Of a stretch of DNA of 64,000 bases, positions 2,931-59,996 are shown piece after piece. Source of the stretch: Eledone cirrhosa (lineage: Eukaryota); the NCBI GenBank assembly GCA_964016885.1, contig OZ024750.1:32302001-32366000 (forward strand), read 5' to 3'. The notes below the pieces were generated by a model. That model saw nothing but the letters and a program-made list of their open reading frames with translations, searched no databases and was not told where the DNA came from. The position numbers and the translations under genes are program-made. Numbering within the stretch: the stretch's first letter is position 1; each line of letters begins with the position of its first letter.

Positions 2931-2936
2931 TAAAAG

Positions 2937-3125: not shown

Positions 3126-3311
3126 TATATATATATATATATATGATGCCTTTGAGACTCATAACAACTATGTACCCTAAATGTTCTAAATGACTAGGAT
3201 TCTAGTTACATGTTTTCGACATTCCTTATACTCCGATGAATCCAGATTTCCTTCTGGAATAAACAATTATCAGCTAATAAATGTTCTAAACTAAAATGTG
3301 ATCGTTTTAAC

Positions 3312-3361
<50 letters not shown>

Positions 3362-3486
3362 TATATATAAATATATATATATATATAAATATATATATAT
3401 TTATATATATATATAAATATATATATAAATATATATATATATAAATATATAATAAATAACAAAGAACGCCTATAGCATATGCATAT

Positions 3487-3544
3487 CTTTACTTGCTAAC
3501 ATTGTTTCATCCGCACTATAAGTGGGACTCATCAGAGCATAAAG
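3487..3544 (-). ncRNA. Type I hammerhead ribozyme (PLE)
   Basis: Reverse complement of the HHR at 7692-7749. Confidence 0.75.
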
Positions 3545-4178
3545 GTTAATTACATACCATACAAGCAATAACAAATCCAAGACATTGAAGAATGAAAAAT
3601 AATAGAAGATAAAGGATATTAAGGAAGTAAAAGTAAAAATAAGAATAAAAATAAAAATAAAAATAAAAATAAAAATAAAAATAAAAATAAAAATAAAAAT
3701 AAAAATAAAAATAAAAATAGAAATAAAAATAAAAATAAAAATAAAAATAAAATAATAAAATAAACAATGAAAAATAAGGGGTGCTATCAGTCACAGTTGG
3801 GCGGGGTGCTGTCAACATATAGTTACATACAAGCATACACATGGATAAGAGAACAGACAAGAGTAGATAAGATAGATAGGATTAGGTAAGAGTAGGTAAA
3901 AAATAGGTGAAAAACAGACTTATAATATATATAAGAAAATATAAAGAAATATATAACAAACTTACATATAAAATATAAAGTATAAAATATACAGATAATA
4001 GTGATACAGGGTAAGGAATGAAATAAAATAATATAAAATTAAAATTAAAATTATATAAAATAGAACATAATATAATATAATCATAAAATAAGATAAAATA
4101 AGGTAAACTAAAATAAAATAAAATAGACTAAAGTAAAATAATATAATATAAGATATAATTAAATGTAATTAAATAAAA

Positions 4179-4229
<51 letters not shown>

Positions 4230-5844: not shown

Positions 5845-6213
5845 CTAGCTAACAGGTTTAAAGTAGAAGAAAGAGCTTAATATTCGGTGGGGGCAAGAGG
5901 AAAATATTTCAGACTTTCTATTTAGTAGAGGGCATTTAGCAAATATAATAGAGTGGGATTCGGCAAGGCATAGGTTACATACTCTATTATGAGGAGTATA
6001 TGGATGGGATTTAGCAACCTGCCGCCAAGTAAGTGTGTAATGTGTTCGTGCATTTTTTAAATTATGGACGTACGCTGCCAAGGAGGTGGAGTTCCTCAGT
6101 TTATTATGTCTAAAAGTGCATTGGTGAGAGTTAAACCTGGTCTTAAAGGGGGTGGAGGTTGATCCTATATAGGTTTTAGTGGACGCCGTAGTTACCACAT
6201 CACACGCATAAAC
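5845..6213 (-). pseudogene. 5'-truncated C-terminal GIY-YIG endonuclease domain of a PLE ORF
   Basis: VYACDV...TYIGST...FKTRFNSH...STSLAAYVHNLK...W...PY...CNLCLAE...LLNRKSEIFSSCPHR*. GIY-YIG motif with conserved R/H/E/N and CxxC. The part of listed ORF 5845..6450 upstream of 6213 is an artefactual fusion. Confidence 0.85.
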
Positions 6214-7020
6214 TGAGGAACTCCGCCTCCTTGGCAGCGTACGTCCATAATTTAAAAAATTACGCTGTGTGTGTGTGCGTGTGTGTCTGTGTATACATTT
6301 ATATGTGTATGGGTGTAGGTGGTTGTATATGTCTGTATATAAAAAAAATATATATATATATATGTATACCGTCTCTGCATATGCATGTGGTGTGTATATG
6401 TGCATACACGTGCTGAACATATTGATGTGTACAATCTTGTGATGTCCCAATGCGGTGACTTCATGGCTCTTGAAGCTATTTTTTATATATCTTTTGTCTT
6501 TTTATATATCTTTTGTATGCGCTCCAACTGTGTCTGCTTGCTTTGGCTAACCCGCCTGCACCTCGCTTGCTAATGCACGTGAATTCTCCTACCTTCCTTC
6601 GATGCACCTCTGTTTGACCATTGGACTCCTGCCCGGGTGTGAACCGGTTTGTGATTACCCCACCGCTCAACTGTGTGAATGCACACCCGTGACTTTCGAG
6701 TGAACTTTTGAGACTGCCCAACCTGGGACGCCTCCATTGCCTTGCAATGGTCAAGTAATACTGGTGACTGTGACACTTAGAGCCTTCGTGGGCCCCTGAT
6801 ATCTTCAAGAAATATATTTTTAAAAAATGGTCAAGTGACACAGATAACTGTGACACTTAGTGCCTTCGTGGGCCCCTGATATATTCAAGAGATATATTCT
6901 AAAAAAATATATATCTTATCTCAATTTACTTTATTTCATTTTATTTTATTTTATTTTATTTCATTTCATTTTATCTAATTTTATTAATTTAATTTTATTT
7001 ATTTACTTATTTAATTTCAT

Positions 7021-7060
<40 letters not shown>

Positions 7061-7691
7061 ATTTAATTTTAATTTTAATTTTATTTATTTATTTAATTTT
7101 ATTTATTTATTTATTTATTTTATTTAATTACATTTAATTATATCTTATATTATATTATTTTACTTTAGTCTATTTTATTTTATTTTAGTTTACCTTATTT
7201 TATCTTATTTTATGATTATATTATATTATGTTCTATTTTATATAATTTTAATTTTATATTATTTTATTTCATTCCTTACCCTGTATCACTATTATCTGTA
7301 TATTTTATACTTTATATTTTATATGTAAGTTTGTTATATATTTCTTTATATTTTCTTATATATATTATAAGTCTGTTTTTCACCTATTTTTTACCTACTC
7401 TTACCTAATCCTATCTATCTTATCTACTCTTGTCTGTTCTCTTATCCATGTGTATGCTTGTATGTAACTATATGTTGACAGCACCCCGCCCAACTGTGAC
7501 TGGTAGCACCCCTTATTTTTCATTGTTTATTTTATTATTTTATTTTTATTTTTATTTTTATTTTTATTTTTATTTTTATTTTTATTTTTATTCTTATTTT
7601 TACTTTTACTTCCTTAATATCCTTTATCTTCTATTATTTTTCATTCTTCAATGTCTTGGATTTGTTATTGCTTGTATGGTATGTAATTAAC

Positions 7692-7749
7692 CTTTATGCT
7701 CTGATGAGTCCCACTTATAGTGCGGATGAAACAATGTTAGCAAGTAAAG
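7692..7749 (+). ncRNA. Type I hammerhead ribozyme (PLE)
   Basis: CTTTA-TGCT|CTGATGA|GTCC-CACT-tat-AGTG-c-GGAT|GAA-AC-aat-GT-T|AGCA-ag-TAAAG. Full core, helix I with bulge, minimal helix III, GUU site. Confidence 0.75.
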
Positions 7750-7892
7750 ATATGCATATGCTATAGGCGTTCTTTGTTATTTATTATATCACGGCTCTCT
7801 CCTCAGACATCGAGCTAACCTTATACTGCCTGCTGGATAAGTGGAGTGTTATACACCCCTGATCCTCTCCCTAGTATACTATATAAATATAT

Positions 7893-8042
<150 letters not shown>

Positions 8043-8187
8043 ATATATATTTATATAGTATACTAGGGAGAGGATCAGGGGTGTATAACACTCCACTTAT
8101 CCAGCAGGCAGTATAAGGTTAGCTCGATGTCTGAGGAGAGAGCCGTGATATAATAAATAACAAAGAACGCCTATAGCATATGCATAT

Positions 8188-8245
8188 CTTTACTTGCTAA
8201 CATTGTTTCATCCGCACTATAAGTGGGACTCATCAGAGCATAAAG
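8188..8245 (-). ncRNA. Type I hammerhead ribozyme (PLE)
   Basis: Third copy, identical to the other two. Confidence 0.75.
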
Positions 8246-8303
8246 GTTAATTACATACCATATTTATATATATATATATTTAAATATATATATATATATA
8301 AAT

Positions 8304-8440
<137 letters not shown>

Positions 8441-8529
8441 AATATACATATATATATATATATATAAATATACATATATATATATATACAATATTAAATA
8501 AATGGAAAACTATATTTATAAAACCATAT

Positions 8530-8600
8530 TTATTTCATTATATATATTTCGGGGATATCATATTAACAATATGCTATGCCTTCATCAGACAAAATACAAT
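8530..8600 (-). ncRNA. Degenerate HHR-like motif in a dispersed repeat (second copy 37240-37308, +)
   Basis: CTGA(T/A)GA, long helix II (ATGCCATAT/ATATGGTAT in the 37 kb copy), then GAAA. Cleavage-site register is imperfect. Confidence 0.4.
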
Positions 8601-9077
8601 ATAAACAGTTTTTAATATTGTAAATATACTCCAAATATTTGTCGAGTGCTTTTATATCAGTTATAAATATTTACTAGTTGTAACCCAACAATTTTAAATA
8701 TAACTTTACATATATATATATATATATATAAATATACATATATATATATATATATATTAGAAAGTGAGGGTTTTTTACAAAATGAAAACAAATACGAGGT
8801 GTTTTACACGAGTGAAAGTATAAGGAAAAAAGATGAAATCGAAAATTCAACTGGTGTCTTCTATTTCACAAGAGAAAAACCACAAACCCTCCATCTCAAT
8901 TCTACTTTTGAAAAGCACAAGAACTGCGAAACCGGTAAAGGAGCCAAATAAATATATATATATATTTTTTAAAAGACTCCAGTTGCATTTTCGATTTCAT
9001 CTTTTTTCCTTATATATATATAACGGCGATGAATTAGTTTTGCGATGTTTTTGATATGAAATCGTGTGTCGAAACAA

Positions 9078-9507
9078 ATATTGTTATACTTGGAGAGGGT
9101 CATATTTGTGTAATAATATTGCCAGAATTAATAACAGAACACACTCACTGTTTGGTTGCTTTTTGCTTCTGTGTCTCTTATATCGGTTAATTTAATTTAT
9201 TCGGTCCTCAATGTTGCCATTGACTGACCAACGGTCAAAAATACAATGCAACGGGAGGAAACATAATAGCACCACTGACGATGTTGCAGATCTGCAACGA
9301 AAGAACTTTGATAGACTATATATATGTGTTTGTGTCTATATTGTTTCTGTATTTTTGACCGTTGGTCAGTCAATGACAACATTGAGGACCGAATAAATTA
9401 AATTAACCGCTATAAAAGACACAGAAGCGAAAACCAACCAAACAGTGAGTGTGTTCTGTTATTAATTCTGGCAATATTATTACACACATATGACCCTCCC
9501 CAAGTAT

Positions 9508-9515
<8 letters not shown>
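9078..9515. repeat. Inverted repeat (arms 9078-9245 and 9348-9515) with HHR-like core in the spacer
   Basis: Arms are near reverse complements. Spacer has CTGACGA-t-GTTGCAG-at-CTGCAAC-GAAA (9275-9302). Right end abuts (TA)n. Confidence 0.75.
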
Positions 9516-13536: not shown

Positions 13537-13569
<33 letters not shown>

Positions 13570-13901
13570 AATGTAAGTATGTATGTATGTACACGTACAT
13601 ACATATATGTATATAGACGTACAGTAGTATGTATATATATACATACATGCACACACATATATATATGCACGTATCGGTTTACCGAACATTTATTATAATA
13701 CTCAGTTTGTTTATTTGTAAACAAGCAAACATCCCGGATTACGCCGTACAGTGTTTAGGCAACCACGTCACATTTTTTACGTGTACATACATACATACTT
13801 ACATTTAAGTAAGTGCCGTACTAAGAGTGAGAAATGAAATTTCGTTTCATTCTATTCCATTTATCGTTTTCGGTGCGCACAGCCGACTGAACTCACTCGA
13901 T

Positions 13902-13949
13902 ATGCAAATTAGGCTGCTCAGCCGTTAATATGCATAAGGAAAGTATATA
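13902..13949 (+). promoter_or_regulatory. Octamer + PSE-like + TATA block (putative snRNA-type promoter), family B
   Basis: ATGCAAATTAGGCTGCTCAGCCGTTAATATGCATAAGGAAAGTATATA; aligns with the family A block. Function is inferred. Confidence 0.5.
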
Positions 13950-13971
13950 CTTTCAGACGTCAACCATCTGG

Positions 13972-14030
13972 CAGGAATGTATACGATGCTGACGATAGTT
14001 AATAAGCTTGAAACTGGTACATCGTTCCTG
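13972..14030 (+). ncRNA. Type I hammerhead ribozyme (family B)
   Basis: CAGGAA-tgtat-ACGATG|CTGACGA|t-AGTT-aata-AGCT-t|GAA-AC-tg-GT-A|CATCGT-TCCTG; GUA site. Confidence 0.75.
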
Positions 14031-14304
14031 TGTCAGTGTTGAACAAAAAGGTGACGTGGTTGCCTAAACACTGTATGGCGTAATCCGGGCTGTTTGTTTG
14101 TTTACAAACAAACCTAGCATTATATTAAATGTTCGGTAAACCGATACGTGCATATATATATATATGTGTGCATGTATATATATATATATACATACTAGTG
14201 TACGTCTGTATACATATATATATGTATGTAGGTGTACATACATACATACTTACATTTAAGTAAGTGCCGTACTTAGAGTGAGAAATGAAATTTCGTTTCA
14301 TTCT

Positions 14305-14364
<60 letters not shown>

Positions 14365-14703
14365 AGTAATTGTATGTGCGGGAGGGCATGATAATGATGT
14401 AATACATTTATTGGAAACAAAGAATTTCCCAATCGTAACTCTATTTCCTCCATTTCCGATTTTCGACGATAGTGGTGAATAGAACACCAAAATGTAAATA
14501 TATACAATACTTAGAAACTACTGAAGAATAAGATTTAGGGGGGTTTTGAAAAAATAAATAAACCTTTTCGTTCATTAAAGACCTAATAATAATTATTTCA
14601 CATTAGACTTCAAAATGATTCCTAAACCATTAACTATAGTAAAATTAATGTCCACAGTTATATGTACTTCTTATTTAGAAAATAGTATTATTATTGTTCT
14701 TCT

Positions 14704-14890
14704 GGGCGGTGGATTGGCAGTATCGGTAGAGGGTCAGACGCCATACTTTCCAGCATAGTTACGTCCCTTTACGATCTGAGTTCAAATCCCACCGAGGTTG
14801 ACTTTGCCTTTCATACTTACGGGGTCGATAAAATAAAGTACCAGTAATGCACTGGGTCATTGCTGGCCTTGTGCCTAAAGTAGAAACAAT
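14704..14890 (+). mobile_element. tRNA-derived SINE, family 1 (full length)
   Basis: A/B boxes and conserved body. Confidence 0.85.
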
Positions 14891-16365
14891 TATTGTTCTT
14901 CTAATTCCAGTCAACTCGTATCTAATAATATCCCTCGACAATAAGCGTTCATCATCTCCATAAATACCCCCATTATATGTAGGAATTCTTTGTATTAAAA
15001 ATCCTTGATATATATTTCTGCAAGATCACGCATTGAGCTCCGTCATAGGAAGACAAATGAAACGAGTTTATCTGAATATATATGTATCGTTGATGAAAAT
15101 GATGTATAATCAACAAGCACGACTGAATGTTTAAGTTCATTTCGTATTTCATCTGTGCTATCAGGGTGTTATCCCACCATGGGAAACATAAGCAAGTGAT
15201 TTATATCAAACCTCTAGGTTTCTCAATATGTTGTGAGTGTAAATTGTTGGATATATATAATTTTCGGTGGCCCTCTGAGCCGAGCTTTGTAAGTATTAAT
15301 GTAAAGAGTATTTTCCAACTGTGGAAAGTTCCGCCAATGTTTGAAACGCTGATTTGCTATGCTAAGAAGACACCATTGCCTGATAAGATCTAACAGTTTT
15401 AGCGACGATGAGGATTTTAGTTGCTTAATCAAATATTTGAGATGCACAAAAGAGAAATGAATGTATATTAAATTAAGATAGAACACAGACAACGCTACTC
15501 CATCATGAGTTTGTGTTCTATCTCACTACGTGACCCCTTCGTAAACTGACTTCTTGTGTAACCTCGAATTGGCCAATACCGTGTGAGTAACGTTAGAGAA
15601 TGATACCGAATGAACATATGTTATATATATTATACCGTTGTACGGTGTATGTGTATGTTTGTCGCAAGCCTAGAAACCGGCACCTTTAGAACGACAGTGT
15701 CTAATATTTCTTCCGAACCAGTTTTCATCCACTCCATCGTTATTCTCGCTATTAGAACTGCAGTGAAACTTTAGAAGCTTGCAATCAACGACATTATTAA
15801 CCATCAATTGTAATATATAATGAAATATATAAAGCATATATGATGAATTGGCATATTATGTCTCTGTAAAGACAAGCAACTAAGGTAAATATTTGAACGC
15901 TAAAGAGACTCTACTAAAAATAAAAGGAAACTACAATATGAAGTTATAATACATTTAGAGAGTGCTTTTGATGTTACAATCCCATTAGCTTCGCAACATT
16001 ATATCGCTTAAAAAATATTCCATTCACTAACCATTAGCTTAATCACCTTATAGACACAAACACGTATATTTTGTATCAAACGGGAAGCCTAATGATATTC
16101 TAGCGAAAAACCACTTCAGGAAATACGTAAGTAATACGTTTCTAACAAACTACATACTAGTAACTATCAAAGTAATAGTTGCTAAACAAAGTTTACATTT
16201 TCGAATGTTGACATGAAAGTTGAAAACTCTTTAATAATTATTTGGTTGGTCAAAGTTCCGCAACTCTTTTAAGAAGTTTAACCATGCACCTACAACTTGT
16301 TACAATACGTTCCCATTTCATCCCCATACATTAAATATGTGAACAATTACACATACATCAATCAT

Positions 16366-32378: not shown

Positions 32379-32834
32379 TTAAAATCTCATACTAAAAATG
32401 AATCAGCTACTTATGTACCTCTGCCTTACTGAGATTTTCTTTCTGTGTATTGTTTTATCTAATACTAAATATATATAGAAGCTCTTGACGAATGTGAAGT
32501 TAGGAAATAAATAGACAACCATTGTGGTTTTGTGTTACTGGTGTTGTTTCGCCTCATCTCCACCGTTGTCAAGAAGATCCACGGTTAAATTCATTCCATC
32601 TATGAGCATCTTATCGGTTTTCGAGATAGGATACCTAGAAATACATTTATCCATCATGCTTTTTTTGTTGTTTTTTGTTGTTTTTTTTTGTTGTGTTTTT
32701 TTTTTTATTAAACAGTAAGTTATAAGTTGGGAAAGATTTAGCCGCTATTTCTAGCAGACATAGTAATTACGCAGATGTTCTCTTCTTTGTTTTGGGCACA
32801 GATGGGTTTGCTGGAACGAACCATAAAACAAATA

Positions 32835-33021
32835 ATTGTTTCTACTTTTGGCACAAGGCCAGCAATTATCCCAGTGTATTACTGGTACTTTATTTTATCG
32901 ACCCCGTAAGGATGAAAGGCAAAGTTAACCTCGGCGGGATTTGAACTCAGACCGTAAAGGGACATAACTGTACTGCAAAGCATGGCGTCCGACCCTCTAA
33001 CGATACTGCCAATCCACCGCC
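32835..33021 (-). mobile_element. SINE family 1 (full length)
   Basis: Reverse complement of the 14704-14890 type. Confidence 0.85.
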
Positions 33022-35423: not shown

Positions 35424-35934
35424 TGAGTTTATAGTTTACACATATAAATACGAGATAGAGTAATTGTCTGATAGAAATGTTAATGTTAGAGGGAAAACCT
35501 TCTAAATGGATGCAGATTTGAATCCGTTTCACTTGTCAAGTGTGTGCAACCTTAAAACAATCTTCTCGGCAAAAAGAATTCCATTTATGCATCAAATTTA
35601 TTAAAGTGGAATCTTTTTATGGAAATATCAATGACAAAATCATAATTGTATCTTTCAGCATTATGTTTACCCAAGTGAAAAATATCTGATATATTTTCTA
35701 AATACCGTTGTTATACATACTACTGTACGTATGTATACATATATGTATGTACGTATACATACTTATATTTAAGTAACAGCCGTACTAAGAGTGAGAAATG
35801 AAATTTCGTTTCATTTTTTCCATTTATCGTTTTCGGTGCGCCCGGCCGATTAACTCATTCGATATGCAAATTAGGCTGGTCAGCCGTTAATATGCATGAG
35901 GAAAGTATATACTTTCAGACGTTCAATCATCTGG

Positions 35935-35991
35935 CAGGAAGGTATGCGTTGCTGACGATAGCTAATAAGCTTGAAAATAATACAGCGTTCC
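35935..35991 (+). ncRNA. Type I HHR (family B), helix III mutated
   Basis: GCGTTG|CTGACGA|t-AGCT-aata-AGCT-t|GAAA-ataa-T-A|CAGCGT. Confidence 0.55.
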
Positions 35992-36364
35992 TTTGTCAGT
36001 GTTGAACAAACGAGCAACGATGGTTGCTAGACACTGTACAGCTTAATACGGGATGTTTCTTTACAAACACACCGAGCATTATAATAAATGTTCGGTGAAT
36101 CCATACGTACATATATATATGTGTGCATGTATGTATACATATATACATCCTACTGTACGTCTGTATACACATATGTATGTACGTGTACATACTTATATTT
36201 AAGTAACAGCCGTACAAAGAGTGGGAAATGAAATTTCGTTTCATTTTTTCCGTTTATCGTTCTCGGTGCGCCCGGCCGATTAACTCACTCGATATGCAAA
36301 TTAGGCTGCTCAGCCGTTAATATGCATGCGGAAAGTATATACTTTCAGACGTTCAATCATCTGC

Positions 36365-36414
36365 CAGGAAGGTATGCGTTGCTGACGATAGCTAATAAGC
36401 TTGAAACTAGTACT
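36365..36414 (+). ncRNA. HHR (family B), 3' strand of helix I lost
   Basis: CTGACGA...GAA-ACTAGT-A followed by a deletion. Confidence 0.5.
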
Positions 36415-37490
36415 ACGGCTTAATACGGCATGTTTGTTTACAAACACACCGAGCATTATAATAAATGTTCGGTGAATCCATACGTAAATATATATATGTG
36501 TGCATGTATATATATATATACATACTATTGTACGTCTGTATACATATATGTATGTACGTATACATATTTATATTGTTGTTATAGTTGTTATTCTAATTCT
36601 TATTAAATATTTAGCAAAAACCAAACTTCTGGGTTCAATTCCACCCCAGATATATATCTTAGCTTCTGAATTATTTTTGAAGTTTTTTATCGATCACAAG
36701 TTCAATTTTTCAAGATTTTGCTACTAATGGTCATTTGATCCTCCACCACCCTCACGCACATGTGTACGCATGTATATATATATATATGAGTGCAGTTACC
36801 TCCGATTGGACCCGGGACTCTCTCTCTCTCTCACACACACGCTTAACTAGTGGTGCGGATCTTGTAAAATCGTACCGAGGAAACAATGTTCTTTGGTGTT
36901 ATAATTGCTAATACTATCTGTCGGTCGTAACTACAGGCAGAAGGAGCATCTATAACAGCACAGCCACGCGCTTTCACACTCAACCACGCACCCTCACACT
37001 CAGACATATATATATTTGTATATATATATATATATATATGCAAAAGTTTTATTTAAAATTGTTGGGTTACAACGAGTAAATATTTTATAACTGACATTTC
37101 TTCCTTTTCTCCGTCTTTCTTTCTAACTGTGCTTAACACTAAATATTTATAAACATTTCACTACCAAACCAACCTCTTAAATGGAAGTTGTTCAATATTT
37201 ATGGTACGTCAAATTTATTTATAAAACTGCTTATATATTGTATTTTATCTGAAGAAGGCATGCCATATTTTTAATATGGTATCCCTGAAATATGTATAAT
37301 GAAATAGATATGGTTTTATAAATATAGTTTCCATTTGTTTAATATCGTATATATAAATATATATATATATCCCAAATTAAATTAAGGGTGTGATGTCCGA
37401 GATACACTTTTACACACTTTTACAAATTATTCCCTGTGATTGTTTTATATGTTTATTTTAGATATATATATATGTCAATCAATTTCTAGT

Positions 37491-37555
<65 letters not shown>

Positions 37556-38738
37556 GTAGGCATCGTATATTAAAGTCCATGCACTCAACAAGTATTCCCG
37601 ACCTTAGATTTCAGGGTCAAGGTACGGCTATTACTGTACAGTGGAGTAGTGGTCCTAAAACCAGCCTCTCTCTCAGGTTGTAGGACATATATATATTTAT
37701 GCGTGTGTATGTGTGTGTAAGCGGTAGTGTGCAGAGTGGAAATAAAGTAAGTAAGATCGAAATCACTATTGCAGCATATGGATAAACTTTCTTGGCATAT
37801 CGGTTCAATAACGATCACCTCAGGGTACAATCAAAATGATCGGGGCCCAACACTTCCTCGACATCGCATCAGATATACGAGTTAATTTATGCATAGTAAC
37901 ATCCAAACTTATATATATATATATATATAAGCATGTATGTATGCACGCGCAGGTGAGTGTGTGTCAGTGTGTGTGTTTGTGTGGGTGTCTGTCAGTGTTT
38001 GTTTGTGATCCGGTGTGTGTGGAGGAGGGAGGGGGTCTGCTAGGAGAGAAGGAGAGAGGATATCAATGTTTCTGTCTTAATTCACTAAAATGAAAACCAC
38101 TTTTCGCTACATGTACCTTGTAATATTATAATATATTCACGTTTGTAAAAACCTAGATTTTTCCCACCACTTCCTATAACACTCTCTTGAGATATAACAC
38201 GGTAGTGAGATAAGACTAGTTCCTCTAAAACAAATTCCATTTCGCTAAACAACACGAATGCATTAGTTGATTCATACATATTTATCTGTCATTTTTACCA
38301 ATGATTATTTGGTGTTGCAACCCCCAACCTACCAACCCCCACCCCCGTAGGCATGCCTTGCAGCGAAAATATACCATAGGAAAACCAAAACCCAAAATAA
38401 ACATAGATATTCTTCTACCTCAAATACTCTTTTGTCTATCACCATTCTCAAAACATGCTTTTATTCTATCTTTCTTTGACTATTTTGATATGTGTGAGTG
38501 TGTGTTTGTGTGTGTGTGTGCGCGGTTGTGTGTTGTGTCTATGTATGTCTGTGTGTGTCTGTGTTTGTGTGTATATATATATATATATATATACAGATGT
38601 GAGAAAAACCACAGACCCTCCATCTCAATTCTACATTTGAAAAGCAGAAGAACTGCCGAACCAGTAAAGGAACCAAATAAAAATATATATATTTAAAAAA
38701 AAATAAGAATCAAGTTGCATTTTCGATTTGATCTTTTT

Positions 38739-39704: not shown

Positions 39705-40700
39705 ACCGGTACTAATTCTGCAACTAATATTTTACTCGGTAACCTTGGTTGAGCGATCCTTCGATCAAAAGTACTGATTCTGCAACCGCTACTGTTGGAG
39801 TTAAGCTCATGTTAACCTTACTGCAGCGGTCTGCTGATCAAAGGTACTAATTCTGCAACTAATATGTTAGTTGGTAAACTTGGTTGAGCGATCCTTCGAT
39901 CAAAAGTACTGATTCTGCAACCGCTACTGTTGGAGTTAAGCTCATGTTAACCTTACTGCAGCGGTCTGCTGATCAAAGGTACTAAATCTGCAATCGCTAC
40001 TTTTGATGTTAACACTGGTTGAGCGGTCCTCTCATCAAAGGTACTTATTCTACAATCACTACTGTTGGTTTTAAACCCAGGTTAATCTTAGTGGACCGAT
40101 GTTCTGATCAAAGGTACTAATTCTGCAACCACTGCTGTTGGTTTTAGACCCTGGTTAACCTTATTGGAGCGATGCTCTGAACAAAAGTACTAAGTCTGCA
40201 ACCCCTAATGTTGGTGTTAAACCCAGCTTCACCCTAATGTGAGCGGATCTCTGAGCAAAGACACTAAATCTATAATCGCTACAGTTGGTGTTGAGCTCCG
40301 GTTCACCCTAGCTGAGCGGATCTCTGATCAAGGACACGGAACCTGGAATCGCTACTGATGGTATTACGCCCAGGTTGACAATAGTGGGGTGGTCAGCTAA
40401 TGAAATGTACTAATTCTACAGTCAGTGCAACGTCTCTTGTAACCCTAGTGGAGCTGACTTCTCATCAAATGTACTGATTCTACAATAACTGTTGTTGTTA
40501 TTAACTGTGTTTGAGCTGCCTTCCAATCCTAGTTACCAATTCTGCAATTGGTGCTGTTACAGTTCAGCCCAGGTTAACTCTGGCTGAGCAGAATTCTAAT
40601 CACAGGTTCTAATTTCGCAAACCCTGATCGAGCAGATCTCTCATCACAGGGATTAGATTTGCAACCGTTGCTACCGTTAAGCCAGAGTTAGCCCTGATGG
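39705..40700. repeat. Degenerate minisatellite of 62- and 73-bp monomers
   Basis: GTACT.ATTCTGCAA anchors at 39709, 39771, 39844, 39906, 39979, 40041, 40114, 40187 and onward. Confidence 0.8.
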
Positions 40701-47682: not shown

Positions 47683-48737
47683 GTTTCTTGGTGAGGAGGG
47701 TGGCTTTGGACATCCTGCAGGACTAAAAACACAACCTGTCAAAGGGCAAAGGGGCTCTTAAGAGTCAATAGCCATCCAAAATCACATGCATATATACATG
47801 CATACATACATGCATACATACATGCATATATACATGCATACATACATATATACATACATATATAGATACGTTCACATACACAAATTCGCCCACAAACACT
47901 GACACCCACACACTGGCACTCAAATACCGACCACTTTAAAGATTATACCAATCTATAGCACTCAAACACATACTATTACTAACACTAACACTAATATTAA
48001 TATTAATATTTATAAGTAAACATAAAATATTCAATGGATTCAAACACGAGTCATTATTTCTGAAAGTTTTCAGTTCCGTCTTTCTGAAATAAATAAATAT
48101 ATTGTTTACTTTCTTCTTAATATTTCCTTCTATTCTTTGAGATTCCTACTTAAGAGATTTTATGTTATTTCTTTTCATTTCTTTGAAAACTACTTCATAC
48201 TATCGAGAATTTTGAGAGAGTTTAGCATTTGTCCAGTTTATGAAAAACTGTCGTATACAATAATAAATTCAAATTGAAATTTACCTTTTTCATAGACACT
48301 AAGCTCTTCGAAGACAATAGATTAATTGAATCCATATATATTGTGATTCTCACATAAACTCAGCAAAAATATATTAGTTAAGCTTTCAAAGGAAACGACT
48401 CAAGTTTTCAACAACGCGCATCCTTTTCAATGGAAGAAGAGAACTATTTACTGAATGAAACAACAAGACCTCTGGTGAAAATTAGTTTCTAGTACATAAC
48501 ACTTGGAAATATAAATTACAACGAATCACTATCAACTCATACATACATGTATACAATCAATAACGTATTCTTAAATCAGTTTAATATAACAACAAAAAAA
48601 ACAATATACAAAACCTCGCTATTCGTTATCGAATTTGTGGTCGGAATTAGAGATATCCTACATATATGACAAACCCAAGTTTAACAATCGAACTTTCCTT
48701 TTCTCAATAATAAAATACTTAATTTCCTTTTTCATAT

Positions 48738-48922
48738 TTGTTTCTACTTTAGGGACAAGGCCAGCAATTACCCAGTTCATTACTGGTACTTTATTTTATC
48801 GACCCCGTAAGGATGAAAGGCAAAGTCAACCTCGGCGGGATTTGAACTCAGATCGTAAAGGGACGTAACTATGCTGGAAAGCATGGCGTCCGACCCTCTA
48901 CCGATACTGCCAATCCACCGCC
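48738..48922 (-). mobile_element. SINE family 1 (full length)
   Basis: Near-consensus copy. Confidence 0.85.
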
Positions 48923-49009
48923 TTTTCATATTGTTTATAGTTTAGTTAGAAGAAGGAAAAGTTCCCATGAATGCAAACTTACTGAAACTGGTGAGCTTGA
49001 CGCCGTTAA

Positions 49010-49131
49010 TGTTCTGAGTTCAAATCCCGCCGAGGTTAACTTTGTCTTTTATCCTTACGGGGGTCGATAAAATAAAGTACCGGTAATGCACTGAGATAAT
49101 TGCTGGCCTTGTGCCAAAGGTAGAAACAATT
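49010..49131 (+). mobile_element. SINE family 1, 5'-truncated
   Basis: B box plus body. Confidence 0.8.
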
Positions 49132-50129
49132 ATTATCACACAACCAAAACATTTCCAGAATCTCAATGTTACTCTTCGTTGATTAAAAGCAACGAAAACC
49201 AATTTCAAGTCTATCTGTTAAAACATATTTCTAGAGCCATCACATGCCTCATTGATCCTGTATGTGCTTTCATTGAGTGTCGGTCTAGAAAGCAATCATT
49301 GGTGCATATTGATTGATAAATTGAAAATAGATTTAACACATCCATTATCATTGAAATATTCGAAAGCATTAAATAGATTTAACTAACTTAATTTCACGAC
49401 TTATACAAACATTTCCAGCAGTAGACCTTGATTTTCACATTTCAGGAAATCCATAGGATCATTGAATAAAACTGATCTTATGTTTTAATAAAGCCAATGG
49501 AACCCTTCTTTGAGTAGAAATAAATGCGACTAGATTTGACTGAAAACAGAAACTGGATTATGACCAACTACACAACGATTTTACGTTTAGCAGTAAATAG
49601 ATATTACATGTGATAGTAAATAAATGAGAACAGAAGATCCATTTAAGAAAAAAAAAGTTTAAGGAGGAAATTGGAAGTTCTTACGTTAGCGCTTGTCAAA
49701 CTGAATAAGAAGCGAATTTGTTTGAATTCGGAAAAGGTTGCTAAAAGCATTACTTTGATTCTACTCGCTACCATAGATGACAGAGAAAAATATGTAATAT
49801 AGTTATTAAGTAACTCATATTAATTCAGATCTATTGATCATGGATCTGATATCCGTGTCTGACTAAAAAATCATACTTTCAGATGTACTGATCATGAGTC
49901 TGACTAATAGCCATATTTCAAGTTTACTGATCGCGTGTCCGATATCCATATTTGACTATTAGCCAACATCGATTTTCATATGCAAAATTTCATATAGGGT
50001 TTAGCTTATTCTGTCTCAGTACCGAGTGAGTAAATGTCACTGATGACAAAAACAACTGTTTGACATAATCAGAGGCAACTGATCACGGCTCAAAATAAAG
50101 TATTTATAGCGAGACTGTTGTAAGTTTAT

Positions 50130-50298
50130 TATCGGTAGAGAGTCTGACGCCATGCTTTGTAGCAAAGAGTTACGGCTCTTTATGGGCTGAGTTCAACTCC
50201 CGCCGAGGTTAACTTTTCCTTTCATCCTTACGGCGTCGATAAAATAAAGTACCAGTAATGGACTGGGTAATTGCTGGCCTTGTGCCAAAAGAAGAAAC
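50130..50298 (+). mobile_element. SINE family 1
   Basis: Near full length. Confidence 0.85.
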
Positions 50299-50417
50299 TA
50301 TTATATATAGATATATCGTATATGTCTTCATACACATCCCAATTAAGCAATTAAGAACTATGCTCTGTTACTGCTTCTGCTTATATATATATATATATAT
50401 ATATACATAATAATAAT

Positions 50418-50596
50418 AATTGTTTCTACTTTTGGCACAGGGCCAGCAATTATCCAGTACATTACTGGTACTTTATTTTATCGACCCCGTAAGGATGAAA
50501 GGCAAAGTCAACCTCTGCGGGATTTGAACTCAGATCGTAAAGAGACGTAGCTATGCTGGAAAGCATGGCGTCCGACCCTCTACCGATACTGCCAAT
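50418..50596 (-). mobile_element. SINE family 1
   Basis: Near full length, inverted relative to the previous copy. Confidence 0.85.
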
Positions 50597-52228
50597 AATA
50601 ATAATGGTAATAATAATTATGAAGACCAAACTTCATATATATATATATATATATATGAATTGGGAGGGTTTCATATAGCTTCATCACATTCAGCGATGGT
50701 TATTGTTTAATGATTGGCTGGTATTTGCAATATGGCGTGGGATTGTGAAGTATTTGTCCGTTTGAAGCTATGGTTACGTTATGAAGAAGGTGGAGCGGGG
50801 AACAGTACAGTTATAGAATCACTTTATATTTTTCTAAATTTAGTTATTTCTGCATTTATTTCTTAAAATTGATTTCTTAATAATTGGAATATATATTTGT
50901 GGCTCTTATGCGAGCATATAGAAATTGATTTATTGAATAACACTACGAATTCTAGCAGTGAAAACTAATTTTGAGTTTGGTAATTTCTAAAGTTTGTTAT
51001 TAATTATTTCATACTAATTGGAGGTTTTATATATGAAATAGTGATTGTATATATAATTGACTTTATTGAAATATTGCCAGACTCTTATTATTGCTAATTG
51101 ATAATAAGAAGTCATTCAGTTATATTCCTTCTTTCCCGATCGCTATGTTAGGTGAATTATTTTTTTAATTTTTAGTAATCTATTTCTACCTAATTTTGGT
51201 TTCGTGGCAATTAAGAAATTACGGATATCCTCAATTTCGTGTGCTTGGATATGTTTGGAAAAGGTCACGAATGTTTACGATTATTTATTTGACACTTGCC
51301 CTTTAATATGCAAATTTATAAACGATATTTGCATGACCCTTTGATCCAGAAAGTTCTAGAGAAAAGCGTGAATATTATAAAGTCCTTGACGTTAATGATT
51401 TTGTAGCAAACGTGACAATCTGTATACTAAATGATTATATTTAAAGTTGCTGGGGATGGGGGGTCTAAGAAATCTCTATGAGTAATATATATGTTGTGAA
51501 GTAACGTGGCCTAGTGGTAAGGCTGTTGGACGTACAATCTTAATGCCATGGATTCCATTCCTGGAGCACCTTGTGTGTTGGGGTCTTAACCTAAACACTT
51601 CATTTCTCGTTGCTTCAGTATAATCAGGTGACCCGCCACGGACACCAGAATAAGCATCGGCCTGATGAGCCTCCGGTATATATATATGTACTCTCATAGA
51701 CAGACACACACACACACATATACATATATACATGTGTGTGTGAGAAAGGGAGACGCATTCAATCGGGGGTAACCACAGTAAGTAAGGTACTCAATACATT
51801 AGTATAGTATATATAACAAATGTAATATAGATATAGAAATGGCTTCTACACGACTAAAACTGTTTCATTCGAAGAAAATCATCCAGATATTATACACCGC
51901 CCCCGCCCCAACTCTCAAGAGCGTGAACCTAATATACCTTTATTTGTCTGCCTCTCTGTTTTGTTCCCGTCCAAAGTTGCACTATATATATAATTATATA
52001 TATATACAATTAAGTTAAAAATGTACATCCACATATGTATACTGAAATACTAGTATGCATATGAATACACACACGTATACATATGTAGATGTACCGAGTT
52101 TTTCACTGGTCACTTTACTGTGAGTGTCCAGCTATTCTGTATGTAAACACACAGACAAACCGGTTTTTAGAGTCATACTGGTTTTTGAGGAAACACCTTT
52201 CCTCTATTCTCCAGAAAGCCAGACAAGG

Positions 52229-52273
52229 AATATTGAACTAGTTTCGTTGTTGTTACAACTCATCAGCAATATT
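52229..52273 (-). ncRNA. Type I HHR (family A)
   Basis: Reverse complement of 54163-54207. Confidence 0.85.
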
Positions 52274-52694
52274 TACCTATCTTCCGGCCTTTCTAGAGAA
52301 TCGTAAAAGCACATATCGTTATATGCTTTTTCTATGAAAATTAGTAGTGGGCAGACTAATTTGCATAGAGCGTGAGTACGTACCGGTTCAACGGAGACGA
52401 TAAAAACAAATAACGAAACGAAATTAAATTTCGTTTCGTTTGTAACTCACTTTTGTATGACTGACGCTTAAACAATTAAGTTAAAAATGTACATCCACAT
52501 ATGTATACTGAAATACTAGTATGCATATGAATACACACACGTATACATATGTAGATGTACCGAGTTTTTCACTGGTCACTTTACTGTGAGTGTCCAGCTA
52601 TTCTGTATGTAAACACACAGGCAAACCGGTTTTTAGAGTCATACTGGTTTTTGAGGAAACACCTTTCCTCTATTCTCCAGAAAGCCAGACAAGG

Positions 52695-52739
52695 AATATT
52701 GAACTAGTTTCGTTGTTGTTACAACTCATCAGCAATATT
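52695..52739 (-). ncRNA. Type I HHR (family A)
   Basis: Identical copy, +466 bp. Confidence 0.85.
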
Positions 52740-53160
52740 TACCTATCTTCCGGCCTTTCTAGAGAATCGTAAAAGCACATATCGTTATATGCTTTTTCTA
52801 TGAAAATTAGTAGTGGGCAGACTAATTTGCATAGAGCGTGAGTACGTACCGGTTCAACGGAGACGATAAAAACAAATAACGAAACGAAATTAAATTTCGT
52901 TTCGTTTGTAACTCACTTTTGTATGACTGACGCTTAAGCAATTAAGTTAAAAATGTACATCCACATATGTATACTGAAATACTAGTATGCATATGAATAC
53001 ACACACGTATACATATGTAGATGTACCGAGTTTTTCACTGGTCACTTTACTGTGAGTGTCCAGCTATTCTGTATGTAAACACACAGACAAACCGGTTTTT
53101 AGAGTCATACTGGTTTTTGAGGAAACACCTTTCCTCTATTCTCCAGAAAGCCAGACAAGG

Positions 53161-53205
53161 AATATTGAACTAGTTTCGTTGTTGTTACAACTCATCAGCA
53201 ATATT
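53161..53205 (-). ncRNA. Type I HHR (family A)
   Basis: Identical copy. Confidence 0.85.
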
Positions 53206-53626
53206 TACCTATCTTCCGGCCTTTCTAGAGAATCGTAAAAGCACATATCGTTATATGCTTTTTCTATGAAAATTAGTAGTGGGCAGACTAATTTGCATAG
53301 AGCGTGAGTACGTACCGGTTCAACGGAGACGATAAAAACAAATAACGAAACGAAATTAAATTTCGTTTCGTTTGTAACTCACTTTTGTATGACTGACGCT
53401 TAAACAATTAAGTTAAAAATGTACATCCACATATGTATACTGAAATACTAGTATGCATATGAATACACACACGTATACATATGTAGATGTACCGAGTTTT
53501 TCACTGGTCACTTTACTGTGAGTGTCCAGCTATTCTGTATGTAAACACACAGACAAACCGGTTTTTAGAGTCATACTGGTTTTTGAGGAAACACCTTTCC
53601 TCTATACTCCAGAAAGCCAGACAAGG

Positions 53627-53671
53627 AATATTGAACTAGTTTCGTTGTTGTTACAACTCATCAGCAATATT
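53627..53671 (-). ncRNA. Type I HHR (family A)
   Basis: Identical copy. Confidence 0.85.
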
Positions 53672-54069
53672 TACCTATCTTCCGGCCTTTCTAGAGAATC
53701 GTAAAAGCACATATCGTTATATGCTTTTTCTATGAACGGAGACGATAAAAACATTCTGGAGAATAGAGGAAAGGTGTTTCCTCAAAAACCAGTATGACTC
53801 TAAAAACCGGTTTGTCTGTGTGTTTACATACAGAATAGCTGGACACTCACAGTAAAGTGACCAGTGAAAAACTCGGTACATCTACATATGTATACGTGTG
53901 TGTATTCATATGCATACTAGTATTTCAGTATACATATGTGGATGTACATTTTTAACTTAATTGTTTAAGCGTCAGTCATACAAAAGTGAGTTACAAACGA
54001 AACGAAATTTAATTTCGTTTCGTTATTTGTTTTTATCGTCTCCGTTGAACCGGTACGTACTCACGCTCT

Positions 54070-54117
54070 ATGCAAATTAGTCTGCCCACTACTAATTTTC
54101 ATAGAAAAAGCATATAA
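54070..54117 (+). promoter_or_regulatory. Octamer + PSE-like + TATA-like block, family A (one per complete unit)
   Basis: ATGCAAATTAGTCTGCCCACTACTAATTTTCATAGAAAAAGCATATAA. Function is inferred. Confidence 0.5.
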
Positions 54118-54162
54118 CGATATGTGCTTTTACGATTCTCTAGAAAGGCCGGAAGATAGGTA

Positions 54163-54207
54163 AATATTGCTGATGAGTTGTAACAACAACGAAACTAGTT
54201 CAATATT
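54163..54207 (+). ncRNA. Type I HHR (family A)
   Basis: AATATTG|CTGATGA|GTTGT-aaca-ACAAC|GAA-AC-ta-GT-T|CAATATT. Perfect core, 7-bp helix I, 5-bp helix II, palindromic ACTAGT helix III, GUU site. Confidence 0.88.
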
Positions 54208-54628
54208 CCTTGTCTGGCTTTCTGGAGAATAGAGGAAAGGTGTTTCCTCAAAAACCAGTATGACTCTAAAAACCGGTTTGTCTGTGTGTTTACATACAGA
54301 ATAGCTGGACACTCACAGTAAAGTGACCAGTGAAAAACTCGGTACATCTACATATGTATACGTGTGTGTATTCATATGCATACTAGTATTTCAGTATACA
54401 TATGTGGATGTACATTTTTAACTTAATTGTTTAAGCGTCAGTCATACAAAAGTGAGTTACAAACGAAACGAAATTTAATTTCGTTTCGTTATTTGTTTTT
54501 ATCGTCTCCGTTGAACCGGTACGTACTCACGCTCTATGCAAATTAGTCTGCCCACTACTAATTTTCATAGAAAAAGCATATAACGATATGTGCTTTTACG
54601 ATTCTCTAGAAAGGCCGGAAGATAGGTA

Positions 54629-54673
54629 AATATTGCTGATGAGTTGTAACAACAACGAAACTAGTTCAATATT
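54629..54673 (+). ncRNA. Type I HHR (family A)
   Basis: Identical copy. Confidence 0.88.
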
Positions 54674-54961
54674 CCTTGTCTGGCTTTCTGGAGAATAGAG
54701 GAAAGGTGTTTCCTCAAAAACCAGTATGACTCTAAAAACCGGTTTGTCTGTGTGTTTACATACAGAATAGCTGGACACTCACAGTAAAGTGACCAGTGAA
54801 AAACTCGGTACATCTACATATGTATACGTGTGTGTATTCATATGCATACTAGTATTTCAGTATACATATGTGGATGTACATTTTTAACTTAATTGTTTAA
54901 GCGTCAGTCATACAAAAGTGAGTTACAAACGAAACGAAATTTAATTTCGTTTCGTTATTTG

Positions 54962-54992
<31 letters not shown>

Positions 54993-55115
54993 GAATATAG
55001 ACATAGAATATTCGAAAATATTCTGTATGTTTATAATAAACATTTTGAAGACCTAATCGCTATAGAATAGAATACGTCACGTATTACAATTAGATTCTCG
55101 ATAAAAGCAAGGGAA

Positions 55116-55158
55116 GTAATCTACGCGTTTCATTCTTGTTAGAAATCATCAGGACTAC
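55116..55158 (-). ncRNA. Type I HHR (family C)
   Basis: Reverse complement of 55516-55558. Confidence 0.8.
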
Positions 55159-55515
55159 ATATCCAGTGCTTTTATCGAGAATGACACAGCTAGAGACTTA
55201 TAGAATACTTAGCTGTGTACAGGAACTGGTTTGAAAGAGCGGTTGCCGGTCCGGCAGAAATTAGAAATTGGAATAAATGCTCTGAAATAGCGATATATAT
55301 GTGAATATAGACATAGAATATTCGAAAATATTCTGTATGTTTATAATAAACATTTTGAAGACCTAATCGCTATAGAATAGAATACGTCACGTATTACAAT
55401 TAGATTCTCGATAAAAGCAAGGGAAGTAATCTCGCTCTTTCAAACCAGTTCCTGTACACAGCTAAGTATTCTATAAGTCTCTAGCTGTGTCATTCTCGAT
55501 AAAAGCACTGGATAT

Positions 55516-55558
55516 GTAGTCCTGATGATTTCTAACAAGAATGAAACGCGTAGATTAC
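55516..55558 (+). ncRNA. Type I HHR (family C)
   Basis: GTAGTC|CTGATGA|t-TTCT-aaca-AGAA-t|GAA-AC-gc-GT-A|GATTAC, closed by a 16-bp stem ATTCTCGATAAAAGCA/TGCTTTTATCGAGAAT. Confidence 0.8.
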
Positions 55559-55826
55559 TTCCCTTGCTTTTATCGAGAATCTAATTGTAATACGTGACGT
55601 ATTCTATTCTATAGCGATTAGGTCTTCAAAATGTTTATTATAAACATACAGAATATTTTCGAATATTCTATGTCTATATTCACATATATATCGCTATTTC
55701 AGAGCATTTATTCCAATTTCTAATTTCTGCCGGACCGGCAACCGCTCTTTCAAACCAGTTCCTGTACACAGCTAAGTATTCTATAAGTCTCTAGCTGTGT
55801 CATTCTCGATAAAAAGCACTGGATAT

Positions 55827-55869
55827 GTAGTCCTGATGATTTCTAACAAGAATGAAACGCGTAGATTAC
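55827..55869 (+). ncRNA. Type I HHR (family C)
   Basis: Identical copy, +311 bp. Confidence 0.8.
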
Positions 55870-56023
55870 TTCCCTTGCTTTTATCGAGAATCTAATTGTA
55901 ATACGTGACGTATTCTATTCTATAGCGATTAGGTCTTCAAAATGTTTATTATAAACATACAGAATATTTTCGAATATTCTATGTCTATATTCACATATAT
56001 ATCGCTATTTCAGAGCATTTATC

Positions 56024-56079
<56 letters not shown>

Positions 56080-56906
56080 CAGATTAGAGCAAACATCACG
56101 GACGCTCTATCTCAAAATTATTTTTGAAAAGCATTAGAAATGCGCAACCGGTAAAACTTAAAAGCAAAACTGAATACTAAACAATACTATTACTAATTTT
56201 CACTTATTCCTAATTAAACTATTTTTCACTGTGAACAATTTGTCAGCATTTTCTTTTCCGTTTACCAATATATCATAACTTGTGTGTTACACCTCTATTC
56301 TTTTAAATATATATATATATATATATATTTTATAAACCTGACGGCCGTATGTATGTAACAAACCTTTCGCCAAACGGCTGGACCAAACAGCACCAACATT
56401 TGCACCTTAGATGTAACTTTTTCTAAGTAAGAAAGTGAAGCTATTTTTGTCTACTGAAGTTTGTTAAAAGATTAAAGACATTATTTAAATATTCACTTCT
56501 TTAAAATTTCAAATGTCAACAATTCCGGTTATACAACATTCCTCTCTCTCTTTCTTAGCCTGTCTTTTTAGATAGATACAGCTATAACGTTGCACCCTTA
56601 CAATATGTCTCTGTATGTCTGCTTGTCTGCATTAGGCCGATAAGATCAGTAACCTCCGCAGTAGTGAAAGAGTGAAGAATAACATGGTCGGCTGTACAAA
56701 AAGGGTTTTATTTACAATATTAACAATTGTTTCATTGATCAGATGAGTCTAAAGGCAGCTGATTACTCGAAATTGCGTCCTCGACCTTAAATACAGTGTA
56801 TGTCTCTGATCAAATCATCGGAATACTCTAACTTGATTACCTAAAACGATAACTTATTATCCCATATATATATATATATACTCACACACACACATACTCC
56901 CCCCCC

Positions 56907-58470: not shown

Positions 58471-58822
58471 ATAGTATATTTCTTATTTGATACTTCGTGT
58501 CCGGCTGAAATGTATGTTGTTGCCTTTAAGCGATCTCTTATATGCATACATACATACATGGTGGTGGCTGCCAACTCGTTTTCGAGTACGGCCACTACTT
58601 TATATCCATGTAGGAGAACCCCTACCGATGCGCTGAACGAGTGTGACTTTTTAGTCCAGCCAGCGACTTGAAAACTCTGGTACAAACACTACACTTGTGA
58701 CAATTATTGACACATAGTGCCAGGCCCATGGTACCATGTGATGACAAGTGCAGAGAGATCTCCAGATATAAAGCAATGCCTGTGCCGTGAAGCTTTTATA
58801 GTGAGCAAAGGCACTGCACAAA

Positions 58823-59996
58823 GTCAGTCCCCTCTTGGTTCTGACATCTAGTAGGATGTAGAACACCATCTTCATAGAGCGAAGCTGGGCATTCTTCTGT
58901 TTTGGTTGAGATAGTCAGTCCCCTCTTGGTTCTGACATCTAGTAGGATGTAGAACACCATCTTCATAGAGCGAAGCTGGGCATTCTTCTGTTTTGGTTGA
59001 GATAGTCAGTCCCCTCTTGGTTCTGACATCTAGTAGGATGTAGAACACCATCTTCATAGAACGAAGTTGGGCATTCTTCTGTTTTGGTTGAGATAGTCAG
59101 TCCCCTCTTGGTTCTGACATCTAGTAGGATGTAGAACACCATCTTCATAGAACGAAGCTGGGCATTCTTCTGTTTTGGTTGAGATAGTCAGTCCCCCTCT
59201 TGGTTCTGACATCTAGTAGGATGTAGAACACGATCTTCATAGAACGAAGCTGGGCATTCTTCTGTTTTGGTTGAGATAGTCACTCCCCCTCTTGGTTCTG
59301 ACATCTAGTAGGATGTAGAACACCATCTTCATAGAACGAAGCTGGGCATTCTTCTGTTTTGGTTGAGATAGTCACTCCCCCTCTTGGTTCTGACATCTAG
59401 TAGGATGTAGAACACCATCTTCATAGAACGAAGTTGGGCATTCTTCTGTTTTGGTTGAGATAGTCAGTCCCCTCTTGGTTCTGACATCTAGTAGGATGTA
59501 GAACACCATCTTCATAGAACGAAGCTGGGCATTCTTCTGTTTTGGTTGAGATAGTCAGTCCCCCTCTTGGTTCTGACATCTAGTAGGATGTAGAATACCA
59601 TCTTCATAGAACGAAGCTGGGCATTCTTCTGTTTTGGTTGAGATAGTCAGTCCCCCTCTTGGTTCTGACATCTAGTAGGATGTAGAATACCATGTTCATA
59701 GAACGAAGCTGGGTATTCTTCTGCTTTGGTTGAGATAGTCAGTCCCCCTCTTGGTTCTGACATCTAGTAGGATGTAGAACACCATGTTCATAGAACGAAG
59801 CTGGGCATTCTTCTGTTTTGGTGGAGATAGTCAGTCTCCCTCTTGGTTCTGATATCTAGTAGGATGAAGAACACCGTCTCCATAGAACGAAGCTGGGCAT
59901 TCTTCTGTTTTGGTTGAGATAGTCAGTCCCCTCTTTGTTCTGACATCTAGTAGGATGTAGAACACCGTCATCATAGAACGAAGCTGGGCATTCTTC
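58823..59996. repeat. 91/92-bp minisatellite, 13 cores
   Basis: GTCA(G/C)TCCCC starts at 58823, 58914, 59005, 59096, 59187, 59279, 59371, 59463, 59554, 59646, 59738, 59830, 59922. Confidence 0.95.

Follow-up and report, generated by a model that had tools for sequence, protein, structure and literature searches.

The 64-kb stretch of DNA analysed here (the window) is AT-rich and contains many microsatellites, one of which harbours a tandem repeat of 310 nt (family C) that a preliminary description had presented as a hammerhead-bearing unit encoding a viroid-sized, branched circular RNA. The locus raises the question of what kind of element this repeat is, and by which machinery it reached its present site. 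The evidence makes it highly probable that C is a non-autonomous retrozyme, that is, a 310-bp tandem repeat lying in a (TA)n run and spreading by means of Penelope-like enzymes. It likely constitutes a new family within the known kind of metazoan non-LTR retrozymes, in a comparison with the coral, mussel and axolotl members described in PMC7229834.

A recent head-to-head insertion in a TA microsatellite

The window contains one C insertion, organised as follows:

54966..54992, left (TA)n target flank, where the array of the 466-bp family B also ends
54991..56027, whole C insertion, two arms head to head inside the TA microsatellite
54991..55432, minus strand, left, inverted arm, about 1.4 units
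55433..56027, plus strand, right arm, 1.92 units, starting at unit position 191 and ending at 163-165
56027..56079, right (TA)n target flank

As previously described, the unit measures 310 bp (34% GC), one copy having 311 bp because of an extra A. The head-to-head arms and the (TA)n flanks, absent from that description, are the most informative features of C. The RNA-sense 5' ends of both arms meet at 55432/55433; that of the left arm coincides with the predicted ribozyme cut site (+/-1 nt), and the same arm has its 3' end within unit positions 129-139, where a TA-like patch matches the target. The outer (3') ends of this single insertion are about 25-35 nt apart, and any target-site duplication would be masked by the (TA)n on both sides. 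The copies of C differ at three positions, namely the extra A near 55811 and substitutions at 56023 and 54991 (the latter within the target match), and the arms are 99-100% identical; so few differences indicate a recent insertion. No LTR layout was found in it, an RT and GIY-YIG ORF was looked for and was absent, and the longest ATG-initiated ORF on the circle comprises 30 aa in sense and 17 aa in antisense orientation.

Another dispersed repeat (56058-56155, 38572-38668 and 8872-9022) begins directly after the right (TA)n of C. The TA run to the right of C has thus attracted, or adjoins, three different elements.

A type I hammerhead motif conserved in all C copies

Three copies of the ribozyme and two predicted monomers were located in the insertion:

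55094..55182, minus strand, hammerhead copy 1, perfect 16-bp basal stem, core starting at 55152, predicted cut after 55122
55492..55580, plus strand, hammerhead copy 2, basal stem 55492-55507/55565-55580
55516-55521/55553-55558, plus strand, helix I of copy 2
55522-55528, plus strand, core of copy 2
55529-55542, plus strand, helix II of copy 2, with U.U base and 6-nt loop
55546-55551, plus strand, palindromic helix III of copy 2, predicted cut after GUA at 55552
55802..55891, plus strand, hammerhead copy 3, core at 55833, predicted cut after 55863, basal stem bulged by the extra A
55553..55863, plus strand, predicted cut-to-cut monomer of the right arm, 311 nt
55431-55122, minus strand, predicted cut-to-cut monomer of the left arm, 310 nt

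The ribozyme is of type I, with an intact core in the three copies and GUA as cut triplet. Helix I comprises 6 bp and an internal loop, the helix II region spans 14 nt (U.U, 3-4 bp and a 6-nt loop), and helix III is formed by the palindrome ACGCGT, which, as had been stated, is present in every copy. The perfect 16-bp stem on which the hammerhead had been placed was found in two of the three copies, the third having a 1-nt bulge, and the ribozyme does not sit directly on it, since the stem reaches helix I via internal loops. A tandem pair of ribozymes exists in the right arm only (cores at 55522 and 55833).

No Rfam match was obtained in the window at gathering thresholds. The HH9 model aligned over its full length with the three C copies at 19.2 bits (E 0.35), below its threshold of 52, and scored 37.7 bits with family B. 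A covariance model built from families B and D only, with C left out (R2), recovered all three C ribozymes at 40-42 bits (E about 1e-9), the next non-ribozyme match scoring 11.5; the scores of C with a second model that took in C (R1) were not used. In an alignment of four sequences (C, B and two D copies) with the structure set by hand, 93% of cells pair and both sides change in 8 of the 11 ribozyme pairs, compared with 0-2 in slid controls. The antisense circle contains no hammerhead core, and no other ribozyme family was detected in C at E values up to 10. Matches to miRNAs at E up to 10 were discarded as hairpin or TA-repeat noise below threshold.

Cleavage is predicted to be dimer-dependent. 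According to the energy model, the right arm gains 7.7 kcal/mol by forming a double hammerhead instead of two single ones, and 6.7 kcal/mol must be paid to impose a single active fold on the C circle. The weak points of the ribozyme are the U.U and the 1-bp helix III, and helix II has a pair probability of 0.13-0.16 in the circle. These energies agree with the dimer rule for hammerheads with a short palindromic helix III (PMC4209133, PMC6765202). Nevertheless, a word of caution on the predicted cleavage step comes from Xenopus, where eight of nine predicted retrozyme dimers did not cleave in vitro and one did (bioRxiv 10.64898/2026.07.22.740005).

Fold of the predicted circle

Four hairpins outside the ribozyme had been named, and all of them are present, their pairs reaching probabilities of 0.65-1.0 in the ensemble of the circle:

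55456..55490, plus strand, hairpin ACACAGCTA/TAGCTGTGT, with a second copy at 55766
55590..55602, plus strand, TACGT palindrome hairpin with 3-nt loop
55650..55669, plus strand, AGAATATT hairpin with TTCG loop, overlapping a 12-mer common with family B
55728..55740, plus strand, TGCCGG palindrome hairpin with 3-nt loop

The sequences of the hairpins that had been drawn with 1-nt loops do exist, but they are predicted to form with 3-nt loops only. The check proposed at the time, circular folding against shuffled controls, turned out in favour of C: its circular MFE is -67.8 kcal/mol, against a mean of -47.1 +/- 4.4 for dinucleotide shuffles (z -4.7), and none of 300 shuffles folded as low. The antisense circle behaves likewise (-77.9 kcal/mol, z -4.75, 0/150), and the linear monomer reaches -72.5 kcal/mol. 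Shuffling only the 221 nt outside the ribozyme and basal stem brought z to -2.6 (3/250), so that about half of the fold excess is due to that module. Among 67 background stretches taken from the window, with similar GC and free of microsatellites (15 shuffles each), none attained z -4.7 and four attained the MFE of C. Per nucleotide, C is the weakest of the three families (-0.22 kcal/mol versus -0.34 and -0.30 in its sisters), which show z values of -10.5 (B) and -6.2 (D), with 0/90 shuffles each. Only 3 of the 93 pairs in the predicted C fold are G-U. The structure of C is therefore real, strand-symmetric and unremarkable within its group, and the epithet "highly structured" holds against chance but not against its relatives.

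A viroid-sized branched circular RNA remains a reasonable prediction, as the fold beats shuffles and retrozyme circles measure 170-400 nt (PMC7229834). C does not look like a viroid-like replicon, given that it is DNA-encoded, has no hammerhead core in antisense and shows a Penelope-type insertion layout. Read-through of both arms is predicted to give a 259-bp duplex burying the ribozymes, and this particular copy may accordingly be silent; a circle could be produced from it only if transcription starts near the junction and runs outward.

Sister families and the missing octamer

Two related families occur in the window, and a short remnant was noted in C:

52003-54968, family B, retrozyme array with a 466-bp unit, head-to-head arms of 3.72 and 2.61 units, (TA)n outside
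13568-14315 and 35712-36574, family D, about 430-450 bp, older, octamer-bearing
55438..55445, plus strand, tentative octamer-like remnant (5/8 bases), 84 nt before the core, again at 55748

Family B has a GUU cut triplet, the octamer and a 19-nt templated piece at its junction, and the inverted arrays B and C adjoin each other. Family D shares 290 of 430 positions with B, shares the basal U.U of helix II with C and, judging from its octamer, is probably the family A of the preliminary description. Its older insertion at 13568-14315 exhibits the same inverted geometry as B and C, with arms 88.5% identical.

The reported absence of the octamer from the C unit was borne out, even with one mismatch allowed. 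Its chance expectation in 310 nt is 0.023, and the absence is thus meaningful only against the octamer-keeping sisters B and D. The window holds 11 octamers (five in B, three in D and three elsewhere), located 100 nt before the core in B and 88 nt in D, and the tentative remnant of C has surroundings resembling theirs. The octamer-region match of C, chosen post hoc, was reached by 102/5000 shuffles and 14/3000 random stretches; a 12-mer common to C and B, likewise chosen post hoc, lies 92 nt from the cut in both (2/3000 shuffles). Broad homology between the body of C and B found no support, since the local score was equalled in 80/1000 shuffles and that of the global 5' part in 1105/2000, and similarity with D is weak (23/1000 and 31/2000). 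Shared descent of C beyond the ribozyme module is suggested by the same-register 12-mer and the octamer-region match only, and C may be a shortened relative that lost the octamer site.

The octamer drives transcription of newt satellite 2, in which it belongs to an snRNA-type promoter. This promoter has a counterpart in B and D and is not intact in C; no confirmation of octamer-driven transcription of such repeats was found in the literature searched.

Several other repeats were observed in the window. The second D unit carries a 53-nt deletion starting exactly at the ribozyme cut site (36414). It may have arisen when the template was switched or a cleaved end was ligated; alternatively, DNA may have been lost between short direct repeats. 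A two-copy repeat (8285-8612 and 37223-37555, 78% identical) adjoins (TA)n and has a degraded hammerhead-like core (8588 on the minus strand, 37249 on the plus strand) that neither covariance model detects. A SINE-like family of about 190 bp, which we take to resemble octopus SINEs, is present in more than 10 copies (2750-3130, 14700-14900, 32830-33020, 48734-49134, 50130-50600 and others). Together with the microsatellites, this family makes an animal the likely source of the window, and both would fit an octopus. The remaining cases are a 92-bp tandem unit at 58822-59996 (12.8 copies, 96% identical, without a hammerhead core in the motif scan), a diverged complex tandem repeat at 39708-40504 (periods of 62, 73 and 135 bp) and a 440-bp self-inverted segment at 9078-9515, with arms 85% identical, that ends at (TA)n.

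Penelope-like insertion marks

A remnant of a Penelope-like element lies in the same window:

3452-8262, Penelope-like remnant, 5'-truncated, with inverted terminal repeats and a (TA)n-anchored layout as in C
5845-6260, minus strand, GIY-YIG fragment of the remnant, with Hydra-type motifs

The remnant has three hammerheads of its own, with long helix II, arms 89.6% identical and a 91-nt tail on two of its three ends. Its GIY-YIG fragment gave a Pfam match of 17.1 bits (E 0.007), below the cut-off of 22.6, and a single homologue, P0001 (36% identity, E 6e-9), in which the CxCX5C linker is present and the cysteine pair inside the GIY-YIG core is absent; a near-length protein search with the fragment returned no match. 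The Hydra clade is defined by this linker, by the absent core cysteine pair and by CxxC and CxH around conserved E and N, and almost all of its families insert in (TA)n (PMC8557442). Penelope elements are recognised by an inverted 5' copy, by offset 3' ends and by (TA)n as target (PMC8557442, PMC11167929). One Penelope protein was shown in vitro to nick two strands and to start reverse transcription at two internal sites (PMC11167929), and a tail of 30-40 bp is expected from such paired start sites.

The insertions of B and D terminate on the outside at two homologous sites. Three of these ends map to D positions 215-219 and two to about 269-275, a pattern that recalls the two Penelope RT start sites. 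As no sequence similarity was detected between C and the remnant, the Penelope partner of C is deduced from the layout alone.

Proposed life cycle and insertion template

Of the sequence-testable properties of non-LTR retrozymes, C has a type I hammerhead per full unit, a unit of 150-450 bp, GC below 50%, lack of coding capacity, a self-paired circular fold and a Penelope element in the same genome. C units would be transcribed as multimers, and the ribozyme is predicted to cut after GUA, mainly as a double hammerhead pairing two ACGCGU palindromes, a form that is favoured because a single copy makes only a 1-bp helix III. The released 310-nt monomer would fold back, helix I and the 16-bp stem clamping both ends, and a host RtcB-type ligase would close it to a circle in which the ribozyme would be mostly off. 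RtcB closure and circle accumulation are established in coral, mussel and axolotl retrozymes (PMC7229834). An RT/GIY-YIG protein akin to that of Penelope, and probably of the Hydra type that targets (TA)n, would then nick both strands of the TA run and prime two cDNAs at internal AT-rich RNA sites, thereby generating the two inverted arms. Mobilisation of retrozymes in trans by a Penelope-like protein has already been proposed (PMC7229834; bioRxiv 10.64898/2026.07.22.740005), and the retrozyme literature covered here contains no demonstration of the enzyme and template that spread animal retrozymes.

The arm ends bear on the nature of this template. When the unit is numbered from the cut, the inner ends of C fall at positions 1 and 191 and those of D at 26 and 210; in B they are 20 and 294, the latter followed by a jump to 364. 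All three inverted insertions have an inner end that follows the cut site by 0-26 nt and, in C, coincides with it (Fisher p 0.006 under uniform ends, a post hoc value with n=3). The second inner end lies 8-61 nt from the 3' end of the first arm, with p 0.045 or 0.20 depending on the reading of the B jump. Such a pattern is the expected trace of twin priming, a process known from L1, on a linear 5'-cleaved multimer, and hints at such a template in place of the circle. We tentatively propose, as an idea that may well prove wrong, that retrozymes are copied not by rolling on a circle, as in the current model, but by double priming on one linear multimer with a ribozyme-cleaved 5' end and uncut inner ribozymes, the circle being a by-product and C an octamer-less, still mobile derivative of an octamer-bearing lineage. 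In favour of this idea, it was chiefly uncut RNA that served as substrate in the Penelope assay (PMC11167929). Apart from the post hoc nature of the test, two features speak against it: positions 20 of B and 26 of D belong to the basal stem, a structure that could stall RT whatever the template, and an imperfect 3-nt microhomology at the C junction allows a different interpretation. No paper on twin priming by Penelope was found in the open-access literature.

Comparison with known systems and alternative origins

The properties listed above, from tandem units of 150-450 bp with GC below 50% to non-coding, self-paired sequences with one type I hammerhead each and coexistence with Penelope elements, are those of the metazoan non-LTR retrozymes of coral, mussel and axolotl (Cervera and de la Pena, 2020, PMC7229834). 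Moreover, C recalls HHR_Amex1 in the palindromic tetraloop that caps its 1-bp helix III, and HHR_Amex2 of the axolotl retrozyme in the basal U.U of helix II (PMC7229834). C differs from them in being a new sequence family whose cleavage and expression are predicted only, and in its (TA)n-anchored head-to-head arms and arm-end pattern, which are not described in the covered portion of PMC7229834. Newt satellite 2, transcribed by Pol II (PMC6765202), Schistosoma Sm-alpha and cricket pDo500 are, like C, tandem repeats with type I hammerheads; these known ones are transcribed and are now counted as retrozymes. No article on cephalopod or octopus hammerheads or retrozymes was found in the open-access literature, and the word "ribozyme" does not occur in the covered portion of an Octopus repeat paper (PMC13282606).

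With Penelope-like elements of the Hydra clade (Craig et al., 2021, PMC8557442), C shares partial tandems, an inverted 5'-truncated copy, insertion in (TA)n, offset 3' ends (the "tail") and a hammerhead motif. However, neither an RT nor an endonuclease ORF exists in C, and the ribozyme of C is of canonical dimensions, in contrast with the minimal Penelope-type form with long helix II and short helix I (PMC4209133). C as an autonomous Penelope element was thus rejected on account of the missing RT/GIY-YIG ORF and minimal hammerhead, the inverted 5'-truncated copy and (TA)n being present.

A different origin, in which C would be a Penelope pseudo-LTR fragment or a satellite amplified at the DNA level, with a relic ribozyme and no circle, would account for the missing octamer of B and D and for a fold with only three G-U pairs and equal quality on both strands, as expected of DNA palindromes. 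Xenopus retrozymes are indeed related to pseudo-LTRs, and tandem growth at the DNA level has been proposed for them (bioRxiv 10.64898/2026.07.22.740005). We nevertheless regard this origin as improbable, because C is a true head-to-tail repeat that crosses its own cut site three times with no ORF attached, its ribozyme has canonical dimensions unlike the long helix II of the Penelope remnant, the ribozyme helices covary across families, and the insertion, with only three differing positions, is recent.

Much less credit is due to a viroid-like RNA replicon copied from RNA to RNA and integrated by accident. The size of C does fall within the viroid range (220-450 nt; PMC8781251), its fold is branched and significant, and RNA-RNA replication has been raised as a possibility for mussel retrozymes (PMC7229834), but the antisense strand has no hammerhead core, no other ribozyme family is present at E up to 10, the window shows repeated integration of related families, laid out in the manner of Penelope insertions, and C has no match in phages or plasmids, nor its 31-nt core any exact match in prokaryotic genomes. 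Hammerhead viroids share with C the size, the predicted branched fold, the hammerhead motif and the lack of coding capacity, whereas C is DNA-encoded, in microsatellite-rich genomic DNA, with a ribozyme of type I topology in one polarity only and a weak folding energy per base. The dimer-dependent hammerhead cleavage of avocado sunblotch viroid is a further likeness to the prediction for C. C as a viroid was rejected, since it lacks ribozymes in both polarities and has a DNA stage. A scan of C for bacterial promoters, irrelevant here, gave a chance-level result (7 found versus 5.9 expected).

Finally, a fold-back artefact of sequencing or assembly, suggested by the 99-100% identity of the arms and by the inverted arrays B and C lying side by side, is the least credible explanation of all, as unit position 1 abuts position 191 at the junction, so that the arms do not mirror each other there, each outer end gives way to (TA)n, and the layout recurs in the older D insertion (88.5%, 13568-14315) and in the Penelope remnant (89.6%).

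As a family, the retrozyme C is ordinary, since retrozymes are widespread in animals and their link with Penelope had already been proposed. Its value resides in being a clean, very recent insertion which, together with its neighbours, displays Penelope insertion marks (inverted arms, a (TA)n target and two recurring 3' end sites) on retrozyme arrays. The coexistence of octamer-bearing and octamer-less sisters allows the transcription of these repeats to be compared in a natural setting, and the arm ends of C and its neighbours offer a direct genome-wide test of a circular versus a linear template.
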